Shown: positions 1,668 to 9,062 of the stretch, piece by piece
Numbering within the stretch: the first letter of the stretch is position 1
Layout of the letters: the number at the start of each line of letters is the position of its first letter
The notes under the pieces: model-generated
The model's input: the letters and a program-made list of their open reading frames with translations, nothing else
What the model was told of the DNA's origin: nothing
Database searches by the model: none
Translations under genes and position numbers: made by a program
DNA from: a virus
Lineage: Duplodnaviria; Heunggongvirae; Uroviricota; Caudoviricetes
Length of the DNA: 42,657 nucleotides
Reading direction: 5' to 3' (one strand)
IMG/VR virus record: IMGVR_UViG_2925914267_000007
Coordinates: 1-42,657 of that record

Positions 1668-2765
1668 ATGGCGTACTATAACATAGAGAAACGACTAAAA
1701 TCCGATGGCACACCACGCTATCGCTGTAATGTGATTATCAAAGAAAAAGGTGTTATCACTTACAGGGAAAGCAAAACATTCCCTAAACATGCTCATGCCA
1801 AAACATGGGGCACACAGAAAGTGATGGAATTAGATCTATATGGCATTCCATCATCAAATGCAGTTGACGGACTTACAGTCCGTGACTTACTACACAAATA
1901 TTTAAATGACCCAAATGCCGGAGGTAAAGCAGGCCGTACTAAAAGATATGTGCTGGAACTGCTTATGGATAGTGACATCTCCGCGATCAAACTATCTGAA
2001 CTGACAGAAAATGACGTAATTGAACATTGCAGGCTAAGAAACAACGCTGGCGCAGGTCCAGCAACAGTCAGCCACGATGTTAGTTATCTTGGCAGTGTTC
2101 TGGATGCGGCCAAACCTGTATACGGAATTAATTACACATCAAACCCGGCGAAAAGTGCTCGTCCATATCTACTTAAACTTGGTTTGATTGGTAAATCAAA
2201 CCGTCGTAATCGTAGACCAGCATCTGCTGAACTGGACATGCTCATTGAAGGCCTTCAACAACGATCTACTCATAAATGCTCAAAAATTCCGTTCGTTGAT
2301 ATCCTCAAATTTTCTGTATGGTCCTGTATGCGAATCGGAGAAGTATGCCGGTTACGATGGGAAGATCTCGACCAAGAACAAAAATCTATACTCGTAAGAT
2401 ACAGGAAAGATCCACGCAAAAAGGAAGGCAACCACATGAAAGTAGCCTTGCTTGGGGAAGCCTGGGATATCGTCCAACGACAGCCCCAAAAATCGGAATT
2501 CATTTTTCCATATAACAGCACTTCTGTTACTGCGGGATTTCAGAGGGTAAGAAGCAAATTAGGTATTAAGGATCTGCGATACCATGATTTGCGTAGAGAA
2601 GGGGCAAGTCGCTTATTTGAGGCTGGTTTTAGTATTGAGGAAGTCGCCCAGGTTACAGGGCATCGTTCATTAAACGTGCTATGGCAGGTATATACCGAAC
2701 TGTATCCGAAATCTTTACATAATCGTTTTGAAGAGCTCCAAAGGAGCAGAAATAAGACCCCTTGA
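1668..2765 (+). CDS. tyrosine-type site-specific integrase (dusA-associated integrase class)
   Basis: 365 aa, AT-rich; C-terminal YHDLRRE...GHRS...Y motifs typical of tyrosine recombinases; divergent and adjacent to the dusA 5' end. Confidence 0.85.
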   Translation: MAYYNIEKRLKSDGTPRYRCNVIIKEKGVITYRESKTFPKHAHAKTWGTQKVMELDLYGIPSSNAVDGLTVRDLLHKYLNDPNAGGKAGRTKRYVLELLMDSDISAIKLSELTENDVIEHCRLRNNAGAGPATVSHDVSYLGSVLDAAKPVYGINYTSNPAKSARPYLLKLGLIGKSNRRNRRPASAELDMLIEGLQQRSTHKCSKIPFVDILKFSVWSCMRIGEVCRLRWEDLDQEQKSILVRYRKDPRKKEGNHMKVALLGEAWDIVQRQPQKSEFIFPYNSTSVTAGFQRVRSKLGIKDLRYHDLRREGASRLFEAGFSIEEVAQVTGHRSLNVLWQVYTELYPKSLHNRFEELQRSRNKTP

Positions 2766-2826: not shown

Positions 2827-3075
2827 ATGCGTATTGAAATCTGCATAGCCAAAGAAAAAATGACTAAAATGCCAACCGGTGCTGTGGATGCGTTAAAGGA
2901 AGAATTAACCCGACGCATCAGTAAGCGTTATGACGATGTTGAGGTGTTAGTAAAAGCCACCAGCAATGATGGCCTTTCTGTTACACGCACCGCAGATAAG
3001 GATTCTGCAAAAACTTTTGTTCAGGAGACTCTGAAAGATACCTGGGAATCTGCTGACGAGTGGTTTGTTCACTAA
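2827..3075 (+). CDS. DinI-family SOS-response protein
   Basis: 82 aa; MRIEICIAK... and C-terminal [16 protein letters not shown] resemble DinI; preceded by LexA boxes. Confidence 0.75.
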
Positions 3076-3423: not shown

Positions 3424-4119
3424 ATGAAAAAGGAAATACTCAAGGCTCTTTGCCCTACATGCGGTGGGTTACGTAACTGCACTGTGCATGGGAAGCTAAC
3501 CACTAGCTGGGAGGATTCCCAATATCCAGTTTATGGGTACCATTACCATCACCTACTCCAATGCAATGGCTGTGATACTGTCTTCTATCACCACAACGAA
3601 CACTTCAGTGAGCATACTACCCACGAATATCGTGATGGTGAATTTGTAGAAACGCCTATAGATATGATCACTACCTATCCTGCCGCTGAAACATTTCAAG
3701 CTCCGATATGGTTATCCAAGCTTGAATCAGTTGATCGTCAGCTCTTTCAAATATTTAATGAAATGTATTCTTCATATACTTCTGACCATTTCATTCTTTC
3801 GTCCATCGGTTTACGGACGATTTTTGATCGAACTGCTGAACTGTTACAAATTCACCCCGGTTTGCCGCTTGGTGAAAAAGTTGAAAAATTAAAACAAGAT
3901 GGAGTCATAGGCGACACTGAGGCATGCGTTATATCTTCAGTAATTGATGCAGGAAACGCCGCCGCACATCGCAGTTGGAGCCCGAATAAAAGTGAGTTCG
4001 AACAAATGCTAGAAGCTATAGAAAGTTTTGTCCAAAGAACTATCTTGGGCAAAAAATCACTTGAACATATAACCAAACAACTCCCACCTCGGGTTACAAG
4101 ACCTAAAAATAGTGCATAA
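3424..4119 (+). CDS. orphan zinc-ribbon protein with a C-terminal DUF4145-like domain; candidate accessory or defence gene
   Basis: 231 aa, AT-rich; N-terminal CPTCGG...CTVHG and HH..CNGCD Cys/His clusters; C-terminal GNAAAHRSW motif recalled as characteristic of DUF4145. Confidence 0.6.
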   Translation: MKKEILKALCPTCGGLRNCTVHGKLTTSWEDSQYPVYGYHYHHLLQCNGCDTVFYHHNEHFSEHTTHEYRDGEFVETPIDMITTYPAAETFQAPIWLSKLESVDRQLFQIFNEMYSSYTSDHFILSSIGLRTIFDRTAELLQIHPGLPLGEKVEKLKQDGVIGDTEACVISSVIDAGNAAAHRSWSPNKSEFEQMLEAIESFVQRTILGKKSLEHITKQLPPRVTRPKNSA

Positions 4120-4145: not shown

Positions 4146-4738
4146 TTATGGTTTACTTGCTACAGGGAATTTTTTATACACCGTTGAAATACCCAGATCA
4201 TAAATCAGTGCGACTTGCTGCTGATATATTCCCGATTCAATCAACCTGCCAGCCTGCCCCCATTGTTCTACTGTCAGCTTTGGCTTTCGCCCACCGTTCC
4301 TCCCTTCTTGTCGTGCTGCGGCAAAGCCGCCCTAGTACGTTCGACAATAAGCTCTCGCTCCATTTCAGCCAAGGCACCCATCACATGAAAGAAAAAGCGC
4401 CCCATTGGTGTGCTGGTATCAATAGCATCCGTCAGGCTGCGAAAATTAACGCCACGTTCGCGCAACTCTTCCACCAGCACGACAAGATGCCGCATACTGC
4501 GCCCCAGTCGGTCCAGTTTCCAGACCACCAGCGTGTCACCTGCCGATAATGTCCTGAGCAGCTTTTTCAGTCCTGGTCTGTCGGACTTTGTACCGCTTAT
4601 CTTGTCTTCAAAAATCAGCTCACATCCTGCACAGTTCAGCGCATTACGTTGTAGATCGGTATTCTGGTCATTTGTTGATACACGTACATAGCCAATAAGT
4701 ATGTTAAATCCCCCTGGTAAAAGCAGGAATGATGCCAT
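4146..4738 (-). pseudogene. Gin/Pin/Hin-family serine DNA invertase, decayed (start codon ATA plus frameshift)
   Basis: Catalytic domain (ILIGYVRVSTNDQ...ERTRA) in one frame 4274-4738, HTH domain (AAARQEGRNGGRKPKLT...VALIYDLGISTVYKKFP) in another frame down to the TAA at 4146-4148; canonical Met codon reads ATA; apparent 1-nt loss near 4326-4331. Confidence 0.6.
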
Positions 4739-4756
4739 TTGCTTGTTATTTCTTCA

Positions 4757-4782
4757 TTTTCATAAACGTTGGTTTGGGAGAA
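4757..4782. repeat. left 26-bp crossover site (gix/hix-like) of the invertible tail-fibre segment
   Basis: Reverse complement TTCTCCCAAACCAACGTTTATGAAAA matches the right site at 19 of 26 positions with central AA; lies just upstream of the invertase. Confidence 0.6.
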
Positions 4783-5238
4783 ACGATAAATAAAGCCTCC
4801 GGAGCTATGCAGAAATCGGCTAATGGAGCTGATATTTCTGATGTATCAGCCTTCCGAAATGCGCTCCAGTTAGGGACCGCCGCAACACGAGATGTTGGAG
4901 CAGATAATGCCTCGAAGTTACTGGATTTAGACAGCTTCAGGTCAATGATGTCAGGGAATGGCTACATCTACATTCCATGCATTGCGACGACAGGAAACCC
5001 GGTGAAACTTATGTTGCAGTGGGGAACGGTGGCAACACAAAAGGGAGCTGATGCTGGATATGCCTTACCATTTGCTTTTCCCTATGCAGGCTTATTTGCG
5101 ACCGGAAACCGTGGAACATCTGGCTACAATGCCGCGATGAATGTGCGTATTGCCAGCAGAACGCATATCAGTATTCAGAACTGGTCGCCATCCGGAGAGG
5201 GCACCGAAGATTGTTGTTTTATCGCGCTGGGGTATTAA
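4771..5238 (+). CDS. silent alternative tail-fibre C-terminal segment, expressed only after inversion
   Basis: Open frame without its own start; junction encodes VGLGE, mirroring the LGLGE junction in the expressed fibre. Confidence 0.5.
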   Translation, partial: GLGETINKASGAMQKSANGADISDVSAFRNALQLGTAATRDVGADNASKLLDLDSFRSMMSGNGYIYIPCIATTGNPVKLMLQWGTVATQKGADAGYALPFAFPYAGLFATGNRGTSGYNAAMNVRIASRTHISIQNWSPSGEGTEDCCFIALGY

Positions 5239-5240
5239 GA

Positions 5241-5657
5241 ATGAATAAATTTTATAAAGGCTCTTTCTATCCGAAAGCACTAAAAGAGGTATATATCAGC
5301 GCCGGTTCATGGCCTGAAAATGGCGTTGATGTTGATGATGAAACAATGGCAATTTACACAGGCGTAGCGCCACAAGGCAAAACGCTGGGGGCTGATAAAA
5401 ATGGTAATCCTGCGTGGATTGATATCCCGCCACTCTCCGCTGAACAACAGATTATTCAGGCTGAACAGAAAAGAACGGTATTGCGCTCTATGGCTGATAA
5501 GGAAATAGTCTGGAGACAGGATGCTTTTGATGCGGAAATCGCGACGGCAGAAGAAACCGCCGCGTTATCTGAATGGAAAAAATACCGAGTCTTGCTGATG
5601 CGCGTTGATACATCAAATCCCGTCTGGCCTACGCCTCCGGGGGAGCAGGCCAATTGA
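5241..5657 (+). CDS. tail fibre assembly protein, alternative copy
   Basis: 138 aa; Tfa-like sequence ending VWPTPP; 3' end overlaps the convergent Tfa gene. Confidence 0.6.
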   Translation: MNKFYKGSFYPKALKEVYISAGSWPENGVDVDDETMAIYTGVAPQGKTLGADKNGNPAWIDIPPLSAEQQIIQAEQKRTVLRSMADKEIVWRQDAFDAEIATAEETAALSEWKKYRVLLMRVDTSNPVWPTPPGEQAN

Positions 5658-6249
5658 TATCCGGCGCGGTGCTGGTATCAGTTGCCGTCACCGCGTCAAT
5701 GTAATCCAGCACGACGTTAAGCCGGGTGGTTTCTGTCTGCGTCAGTTTTCGCCCGGCCTGCAATTTCAGTTGAATCAGATTAATGGAAGCCATTGCAGTA
5801 TCAATCAGCGACTGGCGTTGTGTTTCTGCCGCTTCTACAGCGGCACGATGTTGCGCATCTGTATCGGTCACCCATTCCTCACCATCCCATTTATCGTATG
5901 GCGTTAACGGTGCGACAGTGGTTATGTTTTCAGGGTAATCACCCGGAGTGGCAATTTCTGCTGCCTCACGGGTTTCTGTGTTATAGACTGTCTCACCCCG
6001 ATGGTCCGGCACATACTCCCACGCGGTCAGGTCAGCAGTGCGGCAAATCATATAACCAGCCCGCCTTTCCCCGGGGGCATCAGTGCATGAATGTGCAGGA
6101 AGGCCAACGCCCACAGCCAGATATTCGGTTGACGTGCAAAGGTATTCCCGCGTCTTATTATCGTAGCTGTGGACAACAACCTCTCCTGCAACTGTTGCCA
6201 GCCGCGATTCATTCAGCACCGCTGTAGTCATGGTGTTCTTGCTCATCAT
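5629..6249 (-). CDS. tail fibre assembly protein, expressed copy
   Basis: 206 aa; Tfa-like, ending INWPAPPEA; immediately downstream of the tail fibre gene. Confidence 0.7.
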
Positions 6250-7010
6250 GCAGCCCTTACGATGTAGTTAAATGCAATGTTACGTGGCCTTGCATAACCC
6301 AGATACTGAATCCCCCAGGCTCCCACTGGAACGGGGTTCCAGATATGTTCTGTAGGTATACTTTTCGCTCTGAGAATATCTGAATTGGTTTCAGTTTTAT
6401 CCCATCCCAGCAGGGCAATGTCGTTTACCGAAAACTGCACCACGCTGTCGGGTGATATATTGGCTTCCTGAACCAGATAAGAGCCTTTTTGCCACGACAA
6501 CAACGTCCGGCTACTGTCCACTCCGCGCCCGTCATCCCAGCCACGAATAAATTCACCACGTAAATCAGGCAATATATTTGTCGGGTAAGCCTTTGCCAGT
6601 TCCGGGTATTCTTCAGCAGAAAATGCCGCCCCGTTGCATTTCAGCCAGCCTGTTGGCGGAGTGGTGGAAGGCCACGGAACAGGCACACCAACGGGTAATG
6701 CAGAGCCTTCTCCCAGACCAAGGTTTTCGAGAGCCGTTTTCACCGTGCCATCCGATTTGATATCGCCAAACGGATTCTTGCGGCTTAACAGCAGCGCACG
6801 AAGTGCGGTAAGCAGCTGGTCGTGCCGCGCCTTCTCCAGACTGGCACCGGATGCCTCAACAACGCTACAAAGTTCTTCCTGCAACATGTCAAAGTAGTCA
6901 TCATCCAGATCGGTGGCAGGTGTGCCGGTCTGGGGGTTACCACGGGTAAAACCGTTCTTACCCGCGCCGAACTTATCCTTCTGCGCGGTTTTCGTGTCTA
7001 TACGATGCAT
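6246..7010 (-). CDS. tail fibre protein (constant N-terminal part plus current variable C-terminal part)
   Basis: 254 aa; collar-like motif [21 protein letters not shown]; the crossover site falls at codons 95-101. Confidence 0.7.
6710..6735. repeat. right 26-bp crossover site of the invertible segment, inside the tail fibre gene
   Basis: TTCTCCCAGACCAAGGTTTTCGAGAG; inverted copy of the left site; core ACCAAGGTTTT resembles hix/gix half-sites. Confidence 0.6.
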
Positions 7011-7013
7011 GGA

Positions 7014-7598
7014 TTACTCCGGATATTTAAAAATTACGTAGGTATGCGAAGGGCAGAGTTTGTTAAGCACGCACTCGACAACGGTGTCGCCCCAGATACG
7101 CAGTGCGGAATCACAGGGATCGCCACATGTCATCCAGGTGGTGTTGGTGGCGGCTGGCATGTTGACCTGCCAGTAATACCGCCATTCCGGCGCATTCACT
7201 GCGTCAGTACAGGCCGATGAGCAGGTGAACGTGCTTTTATCGTATCGCGTGATAGTGGCGTCTGGTCTGCCCAGGGCAGCAAGCTGTGCAAGATAAAAAT
7301 CCTCATTGATGCCGCCCGCCAGATTAACCTTCGCATCCAGCCGTTGCTGACGCTGGCGAAGGGTCTGTGTCCCTGCGGGAATACATTCATCCGGCAGACC
7401 GCACAGACGCTCCCAGCGGTTTATCAGTTCGGTGGTGGTGCGCGGATCCAGCTCCCGCATCAGGGCATCCGCACGCTGATGAACGCGGGTTAATGACGGT
7501 GCCGCACCGGCAATCGCCGGATCGCTGACTGACCACGCCGGACCGGGCGGCAACAGTGCCGACAACAGACGGATATAATCATCGTTTGTCACGTCCAT
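7014..7598 (-). CDS. tail/baseplate protein, Mu gp48-like (DUF2313, e14 YmfQ-like)
   Basis: 194 aa; Cys-rich C-terminus; position between baseplate J and the tail fibre. Confidence 0.55.
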
Positions 7599-8647
7599 GA
7601 AATCGTCCCCAGAACCGCCAGCTCATTTTTTGCAATGGAGATATTGTCCGCCGGGGCAAGCAACTGATGGCTGTATTCCCCGTTCGTACCGGAAATCGCT
7701 TCACTGATACGTGACACCTTCAGTTCTCCCTGCGGATAACCATCACGCAGCAGGAACGAACGCAACTCGGCGGTGATGGCAGCCCGTATTTCCGGTGTGT
7801 CCGGCGTCACGCGGATATGAAAATCCACTTTATGCGCCACCGGCCTGAATACATACAAATCAGAGCCTGCCACCGGGGCCAGTGGCCCGATATGTTGTCT
7901 TGCCGCCGTTTCCGTTGACTCTTCCGGAATGGGATTAATCAGGTCACTGCTGGCAATCATCACACCGACAGTCCCCGTTCCCATCCAGTGTCGGTATGTC
8001 CATGCGCGGGTAATGCCGGGCACTTCTTTAGCCCAGACGACATAGTCCCCGTCAGCCCCGCCCTGCGGCGTCCAGTAATACCGCTCAATGACGCGGGCGC
8101 GCCACGTTTCCAGCTCTTCAGTATCAAATCCGCCAGTCAGGATGTCAGCCACACCGGAAGACGGCAGACCATTCACCGGCGTGACCAGGATTAATGCCGT
8201 ACCGTCGTCAGCGTTACCGACCGCACCTGCACTTGAGCAGGCGATCGGCACGCGCAGGACACCACCGGAGCTGGTTGCATCGACAGTTGCCGTGTACTGA
8301 ACCAGGTCATCGCGCTGAATAACACTCCCGGCGGTCACCTTCAGGCCATCGCTGACACCTTCCCAGCGCATATACCCGCTGGCAGCCGTGGCCCCCTTGC
8401 GCGGACACCGTTTCATCGCAGCATGTCGCGCCAGCCAGGACTCATCGCACAGGTCAGGCAGCATGTTCATTGCCAGATAATCGATGTACCCGTAAACCGT
8501 ATGCAGCGCCGCCGCATACACCTTTGCCCGCACGTCTTCATCCATGCGCCGGAGCGTGTCGCTGACGTCCAGCCTGGCGAATAAATCGTTACGGAGCATA
8601 CTGATATTTTCTGCCAGCGTCGGGCGCTGAAATTCACTGTCCGCCAT
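7589..8647 (-). CDS. baseplate J-like protein (Mu gp47-like)
   Basis: 352 aa; synteny within the Mu-type baseplate module. Confidence 0.65.
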
Positions 8648-9062
8648 GCGTTATCGCACTCCACAGATCATCAAAAGAAATCATTACCGGTCCGTCACGA
8701 CGCCAGAGAGTGATACTGTTACCCAGTTCATTAATCCCGGTGCGGCGGATATCCAGATCAATACGGGACACCACGCCATCATCAATCATCCATTGCAGGC
8801 ATTCGCGGATATACCCCCTTACCGTCTGCACCAGCTGATTGGTCAGTTTGCTGCGCTGAAGCAGCCACAGTCGGGAGCCGTAACGGTCATTCTGTACCGC
8901 AGGCCAGGTATCCCCCCACCATCCCATCGGGACGTCGGCGTTGTCATCAGGCTCCGCCCGCCGCCAGGTAAACAGGGAAATCACCACGGCGCGGGTCAGC
9001 GGATCCAGCGGTGCGCTGGCGCAGGTGCGTTTACCGTTCACCGTCAGCCACAGTTCCATCAT
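8634..9062 (-). CDS. baseplate protein, Mu gp46-like
   Basis: 142 aa; overlapping start/stop with neighbours; synteny. Confidence 0.55.
   Translation of the reverse strand: MMELWLTVNGKRTCASAPLDPLTRAVVISLFTWRRAEPDDNADVPMGWWGDTWPAVQNDRYGSRLWLLQRSKLTNQLVQTVRGYIRECLQWMIDDGVVSRIDLDIRRTGINELGNSITLWRRDGPVMISFDDLWSAITHGGQ

Follow-up and report, generated by a model that had tools for sequence, protein, structure and literature searches.

The 42,657-nt sequence of the IMG/VR virus record IMGVR_UViG_2925914267_000007 (Caudoviricetes; positions 1 to 42,657), referred to here in its entirety as the window, looks like a complete temperate prophage of the myovirus type with a tail-tip region resembling that of the Escherichia coli prophage e14. 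The subject of this analysis is an invertible tail-fibre segment, together with the pseudogene of its resident DNA invertase, which occupies positions 4146 to 7010 of the window. The invertase pseudogene is followed by a first crossover site, a silent gp53-like fibre C-terminus with its own tail-fibre assembly gene (Tfa), and, convergently oriented, a second Tfa gene and the presently expressed collar-type fibre, within which the second crossover site is found. The coordinates of these features, and of those that surround them, are collected in Table 1.

Table 1. Features of the invertible tail-fibre segment and of its surroundings, in window coordinates
Feature	Positions	Strand	Remarks
dusA	1579-542	minus	at the start of the window
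Tyrosine integrase	1668-2765		at the dusA end of the prophage
DinI-like gene	2827-3075		follows the integrase gene
DUF4145 protein gene	3424-4119		231 aa; two N-terminal CxxC pairs; between the DinI-like gene and the invertase
Pin/Gin-family DNA invertase pseudogene	4146-4702	minus	557 nt
Presumed Fis-dependent recombinational enhancer	~4600-4675		in the 5' part of the pseudogene; position inferred from the Hin layout
In-frame upstream ATG	4738-4736 (stretch 4703-4738)	minus	adds 12 residues (MASFLLLPGGFN); start of the 154-aa open reading frame reported by gene callers
Left (invertase-proximal) 26-bp site	4757-4782	+	TTTTCATAAACG TT GGTTTGGGAGAA
Invertible segment	4770-6720		1,951 bp between the central dinucleotides
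Silent alternative fibre C-terminus, gp53-like	4783-5238	plus	Pfam Gp53-like_C, E 1e-8
Silent Tfa for the gp53-like end	5241-5657	plus	138 aa; Pfam Caudo_TAP, E 1.7e-31
Expressed Tfa for the collar-type end	6249-5629	minus	206 aa; Pfam Caudo_TAP, E 1.1e-32
Expressed tail fibre	7010-6246	minus	254 aa; Pfam Collar, E 8.4e-15
Fibre, variable collar-type part	6720-6246	minus	
Right (fibre-proximal) 26-bp site	6708-6733	+	TTCTCCCAGACC AA GGTTTTCGAGAG
Fibre, constant N-terminal part	7010-6721	minus	

The crossover sites were identified by scanning the whole 42.6-kb window with the consensus of the hix/gix/pix family, TTNTCNNAAACCNNGGTTTNNGANAA, while tolerating up to three mismatches. Exactly two matches were obtained, the left site with one mismatch and the right site with two; the chance expectation derived from shuffled sequences is 0.02 sites, and none of 100 shuffles reached two. 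When the right site is written in the same sense as the left one (CTCTCGAAAACC-TT-GGTCTGGGAGAA and TTTTCATAAACG-TT-GGTTTGGGAGAA, respectively), the two agree at 20 of their 26 positions. In the centre, the left site has TT (4769-4770) and the right one its inverted counterpart AA (6720-6721), and it is from these positions that the borders of the exchanged DNA follow. BLAST matches to other prophages begin and end at 4766 and 6726, and the left site has the same sequence as the left sites of an e14-like prophage (locus L003) and of a P2-like prophage (L001). Wherever related loci still have the two segment ends, both sites are kept, and the repeat core, TTGGTTTGGGAGAA, matches the published repeats of e14 (PMC12529663). 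The original prediction, made from the letters of the window alone, had placed two inverted 26-bp sites around some 1.95 kb of DNA; its left site and its segment size stand, but its right site (6710-6735) has to be moved down by 2 nt. The segment as a unit has a wider distribution than the prophage around it: window positions 4766-6726 are 97-98% identical to the segments of P2-like prophages and of phage vB_EcoM-640R3 (comparison with L002, L001 and phage records), despite unrelated flanks. Tail-fibre cassettes evidently travel from one phage family to another as whole units.

The right site falls within the fibre gene, at the motif ENLGLGE, and the first 96 fibre codons are therefore constant. 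Downstream of this point the fibre can end in one of two ways, and the assignment of a silent and an expressed C-terminus, each with a Tfa of its own, was borne out by Pfam, which recognizes one Collar, one Gp53-like_C and two Caudo_TAP domains. Both the present fusion and the flipped one are in frame, the silent gp53-like end joining the constant part without a shift after inversion. In comparisons of the window fibre with those of related loci, the constant part is 97-100% identical and the variable part 39-100%. The fusion predicted for the flipped state is a protein of 252 aa that other E. coli prophages encode without any difference (P0001). Among its sources is a related prophage at dusA (L030-L034, e.g., GCA_013370395.1) that expresses this very gp53-like fusion from a segment with one Tfa; we considered whether it represents the flipped counterpart of the window copy and rejected this assignment, because its intact 187-aa invertase is only 50% identical and its segment is smaller. 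The two convergent Tfa genes of the window share 29 nt at their 3' ends (5629-5657), an arrangement that is also present in related loci.

The invertase gene encodes a Resolvase-type catalytic domain (Pfam E 3.1e-49) with the Ser9 motif YVRVST and a C-terminal HTH_7 domain (E 2.2e-11). Comparison with intact relatives revealed two lesions. The first is a 1-nt deletion in codon 126, which reduces GGG to GG at 4327-4328; as a result of the missing G, the Resolvase domain terminates at a 0-frame stop (4276-4274), and HTH_7 is read in a different minus-strand frame that ends at 4148-4146. The second is the start codon, which is ATA (4702-4700) in the window and ATG in all 19 other alleles compared that have a readable start. 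Both an ATA at the place of the family methionine codon and an HTH domain out of frame had been part of the original prediction, and alignment to the family confirmed the two lesions and located the deletion: putting the G back yields a protein that matches Mu Gin (3UJ3; residues 1-181, E 3.4e-91) and has 79% identity to P1 Cin. Together with the sites and the domains, the Gin alignment also upholds the assignment of the switch to the Gin/Pin type. An additional ATG lies in frame upstream of the ATA codon, at 4738, with no obvious Shine-Dalgarno sequence seen before it; the same in-frame upstream ATG precedes the intact e14-like pinE of L003, to which the allele family of the window invertase has 85% DNA identity. 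As it stands, the gene has neither an unbroken reading frame nor a start codon that could be used, and the resident enzyme should be regarded as dead.

The lesions are not sequencing errors, because an index of NCBI, ENA and Logan assemblies has precisely this 154-aa product in 41 blocks, from which 23 contigs were read; they recur in many independent assemblies rather than giving way to an intact frame with an ATG start. The module formed by the DUF4145 gene and the invertase was retrieved as 34 records from 33 complete E. coli genomes, and 20 of these loci were examined. Fourteen of the 20 carry the 1-nt deletion, with the PGAP label "frameshifted", and the other six encode an intact invertase of 185 aa. 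The ATA codon, in turn, is restricted to the window and the contigs L004-L013. Among complete genomes, L014 and L015 come closest to the window (99.84% identity), yet both possess ATG; as relatives from the frameshifted clade that retain this start codon, they indicate that the deletion is the older lesion and that ATA arose later in a sublineage. This order, frameshift first and loss of the start afterwards, is what the decay of a gene would be expected to produce. Confined to the frameshifted clade are E149G, L118F, one synonymous substitution, the replacement of the stop codon TAA by TAG, and the lost start codon. The remaining variation among the alleles consists of third-position polymorphism common to frameshifted and intact alleles, which points to recombination between them. 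The variable positions, which are small in number, gave no sign of selection on the invertase protein after the frameshift.

The module of DUF4145 gene, invertase, segment and tail genes is found at further chromosomal locations as well, beside yciE-like/trp genes, beside bioA-ybhB, or near an hsdR-like gene (L009, ERZ28637052; L029, NZ_CP101920.1; L036 and L037, NZ_CP010242.1 and NZ_CP116152.1). At least two of these locations have the frameshifted allele, a distribution that suggests its exchange between prophages. Two loci have undergone more extensive losses: L023 (NZ_CP061754.1) has decayed further, having lost most of the segment and retaining one Tfa and a fibre without a C-terminus, and in L017 (NZ_CP061764.1) IS26 has removed the 5' end of the pseudogene and replaced the segment.

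Sister copies of the window with the same damaged invertase were found in both orientations. The most precise case is provided by two complete genomes with frameshifted invertases, those of strains MEI148-20EC (L022) and 20KM0223N (L024). Their collinear flanks are 99.98% and 99.94% identical, and the DNA corresponding to 4965-6731 is exactly inverted between them, with an identity of 99.89%. The inner half-sites serve as markers of the exchange: L022 has GGTTTTGGAGAA in the left site and TTCTCCCAAACC in the right one, L024 has GGTTTGGGAGAA and TTCTCCAAAACC at these places, and the outer half-sites are the same in both genomes. Since the inner halves were swapped and the outer ones kept, the exchange took place at the centre of the sites, an outcome that homologous recombination would not yield. 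The two genomes share the frameshift and near-identical flanks, which places the flip after the frameshift; most likely, their common ancestor was already frameshifted.

The second case concerns the allele with both lesions. Two metagenome contigs, L008 and L009, have an invertase flank that is 100% identical to the window over 1,483 nt, and in both of them the end of the collar cassette is joined to the invertase-side site. Once reverse-complemented, the cassette of L005, L006 and L011 matches these ends at 150/150 and 64/64 nt; these three loci have the window orientation and the same doubly damaged allele. By this comparison, the doubly damaged allele exists in both orientations, and both orientations are present in every allele class. 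Loss of the resident enzyme has thus not frozen the switch in this family of prophages. The original prediction held that the switch may be locked unless another invertase acts in trans; for the family, this can be made more precise, given that frameshifted sisters have flipped precisely, and its route in trans stands as the best explanation. As a further observation on such contigs, the short-read contigs L007-L010 end 44-220 nt from the invertase open reading frame, several of them stopping at or just inside the left site and L010 at exactly its last base; these ends would fit orientations being mixed in the sample, or else another segment copy at a different place in the genome.

We consider it likely that the window carries a switch of the e14 P-segment kind whose resident invertase is dead and that inversion is performed in trans; this particular copy may be slow or stuck. 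In such a mechanism, a serine invertase would pair the two 26-bp sites and swap strands at the central dinucleotide, and the strand exchange would turn over the 1,951 bp between them. The constant 96-codon stem would thereby be fused either to the collar-type tip with its Tfa, as is the present state, or to the gp53-like tip and the Tfa belonging to it. The old deletion splits the catalytic from the DNA-binding domain of the resident enzyme, the younger ATA removes its start, and inversion would now depend on a Pin-family invertase of another prophage residing in the same cell. When searched in full with tblastn, the window yielded no second invertase or serine recombinase; any helper would therefore have to be encoded elsewhere in the genome. 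Regions matching the invertase-fibre region are widespread, with megablast matches in 3,405 of 5,426 complete E. coli genomes, at a median of two places per genome. Action on foreign segments has precedents in this enzyme family: the P segment of e14 is inverted by each of PinE, PinQ and PinR, and in Salmonella the H segment is a substrate of Fin, encoded by Fels-2 (PMC12529663).

A helper would use both sites and the Fis enhancer that presumably survives within the pseudogene. In gin, cin and hin, the enhancer lies within the 5' portion of the coding sequence. For Hin, the enhancer, with two Fis sites, begins approximately 100 bp from hixL (PMC3798978), a layout from which the position given in Table 1 was derived. 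A helper acting in trans would still need this element in cis; the homologous 5' part of the invertase gene is retained, with only synonymous variation there.

The window copy possesses a cis mutation that the original prediction missed. A G at position 6716 occupies core position 5, counted from the centre, of the inner half of the right site (TTCTCCCAGACC), so that core positions 6-4 read AGA in this half-site and AAA in the other three. Across the window and all fetched loci, 129 of 132 half-sites contain only A or T at positions 6-4, and the three exceptions, each with a G, are those of the window and of the metagenome contigs L012 and L013, all of which have the same orientation. The substitution is synonymous in the fibre gene (CTG vs TTG, both Leu) and would consequently meet no opposition at the protein level. 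Gin accepts only A/T at core positions 6, 5 and 4 (the preference exceeds 1000-fold), because a Gly-Arg arm reads the minor groove at these positions (PMC3616721). With a G at a position that requires A/T, in one of its four half-sites, the window copy may flip more slowly or be locked altogether even when a helper is available; this is a prediction and not a result.

Several points weigh against the mechanism that we propose. The evidence for inversion comes from sister loci. The helper is a putative enzyme, and the second megablast match to the query that each of the flipped genomes L022 and L024 contains may not be an intact invertase. A scan of the 5' part of the invertase gene with the Fis motif GNNYRWWWWWYRNNC, admittedly a crude one, gave three weak matches, none at the expected place of the enhancer, and no convincing pair. 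Moreover, the A/T requirement was measured on catalytic domains of Gin in zinc-finger fusions, and not on a native Pin enzyme with one of four half-sites altered (PMC3616721).

It is possible, although we regard it as rather doubtful, that the window copy no longer inverts at all and is a fossil fixed on the collar-type fibre, its gp53-like cassette being left to decay. The two invertase lesions in combination with the position-5 G in the right site, and the strength of the preference of Gin at positions 6-4, speak for such a copy, and the three G-bearing sequences share one orientation. These three sequences, however, are near-identical and hence carry little information on orientation, and the mutation affects only one of the four half-sites. 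The reading frames of the silent cassette and of its Tfa remain uninterrupted, the cassette being 100% identical to the P0001 tip that is expressed elsewhere, and sister copies that share these invertase lesions have inverted.

A much less probable explanation, which we think very unlikely to be correct, is that the damaged gene retains some activity of its own. Invertases work at very low concentrations, and traces of the full-length enzyme might suffice if they arose by rare -1 slippage near GCU UUG or by slippage of RNA polymerase, with translation starting at ATA or at the upstream ATG. The HTH frame is open and nearly unchanged in all frameshifted alleles, the frameshifted allele is in the majority (14/20 loci), and the Shine-Dalgarno sequence AGGGGGA is kept upstream of the ATA codon. 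There is, however, no canonical slippery heptamer at the lesion, and the predicted RNA fold around it is ordinary (z -0.94). The clade-specific changes (two non-synonymous, one synonymous, one from stop to stop, and the lost start) fit relaxed selection, and a second disabling lesion, the ATA codon, arose after the first. The invertase gene does contain a perfect 13-nt inverted repeat (4306-4318 with 4475-4487), which forms a helix in the predicted minimum-energy fold and whose downstream arm starts, in the mRNA, 3 nt past the UUG codon adjoining the deletion. This helix is probably a coincidence, because most of the intact alleles compared have it too, and it is broken only in L029.

Residual activity could also be imagined as an adaptive property, the frameshifted allele then being a tuned gene of very low activity in which rare -1 slippage at GCU UUG sets an extremely low switching rate; this would explain both the majority status of the allele (14/20) and its still-open HTH frame, but we give it slightly less credence still. 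That the invertase is truly intact and its lesions an artefact of sequencing or assembly, as the location of the deletion in a short run of G might have hinted, is effectively refuted by the identical 154-aa product in the 41 assembly blocks and by the same deletion in 14 complete genomes from different groups.

The surroundings of the switch are those of an integrated prophage. The element abuts dusA on the upstream side of that gene, and most of the related E. coli genomes have the same layout. The protein encoded by the DUF4145 gene is WP_001514810.1 and is annotated in all 20 related complete-genome loci; PADLOC returned no match for it, and of three other cargo open reading frames submitted to PADLOC, two had no match and one had a marginal match to DndH (E 0.003). 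Downstream of the switch region, on the minus strand, lie the head and tail genes, comprising those for Mu Gp48/YmfQ, baseplate J, Gp46, Gp45, the tape measure, the sheath, an HK97-type capsid protein and the large terminase.

The trans-operated switch that we propose is most closely related to the P segment of e14 and its invertase PinE in E. coli K-12 (stfP-tfaP / tfaE-stfE). The order is the same in both: invertase, site, silent fibre end with its Tfa, convergent Tfa and expressed end, a site within the fibre gene, YmfQ, and baseplate J. The e14-like locus L003, with an intact pinE, is 90% identical to the window over 4168-6166 and 96% over 6517-8700. Nevertheless, e14 is a remnant that resides at icd, whereas the window holds a complete-looking prophage by dusA with sheath, capsid and terminase genes, and the segment measures 1,951 bp in the window and 1,797 bp in e14. 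The window differs from e14 further in that its invertase belongs to a distinct allele family and is a pseudogene, and in the G at core position 5 of its right site. The G segment of Mu with Gin and the C segment of P1 with Cin likewise consist of a serine invertase and two 26-bp sites, with the fibre C-terminus and its chaperone switching together; in comparison with these, the constant part of the window fibre is far shorter (96 codons), the segment is smaller, and the resident invertase does not work. The proposed mechanism resembles the inversion of e14 by PinQ and PinR, and that of the Salmonella H segment by Fin of Fels-2, in that the enzyme is encoded elsewhere in the genome (PMC12529663). 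In those cases, however, the resident PinE and Hin are intact and the outsiders redundant, whereas here the resident enzyme is dead and the dependence would be complete. Judged by its sequence features, the window switch thus seems to be a member of the Gin/Cin/Pin/Hin class that departs from it only in its broken invertase and in a single half-site.

It should be noted that parts of this picture are already known: the pseudogene is flagged in the public annotation of sister genomes, and inversion in trans is established. New are the precise natural flips in lineages with a dead invertase, the order of the two lesions, and the position-5 mutation in the window, L012 and L013. These findings leave the known picture of such systems unchanged. 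The switch determines which receptor-binding tip is carried by the particle and, hence, which hosts can be infected; in K-12, the homologous segment of e14 also affects resistance to phage T2 (PMC12529663). The G at 6716 offers a simple natural test of how strongly a single bad half-site slows a Pin-type reaction. For annotation, a "frameshifted recombinase" located beside a fibre gene need not mean that the fibre type is frozen. A switch with a dead enzyme that is still flipping in nature would indicate that prophages sharing a cell can rely on each other's recombinases.

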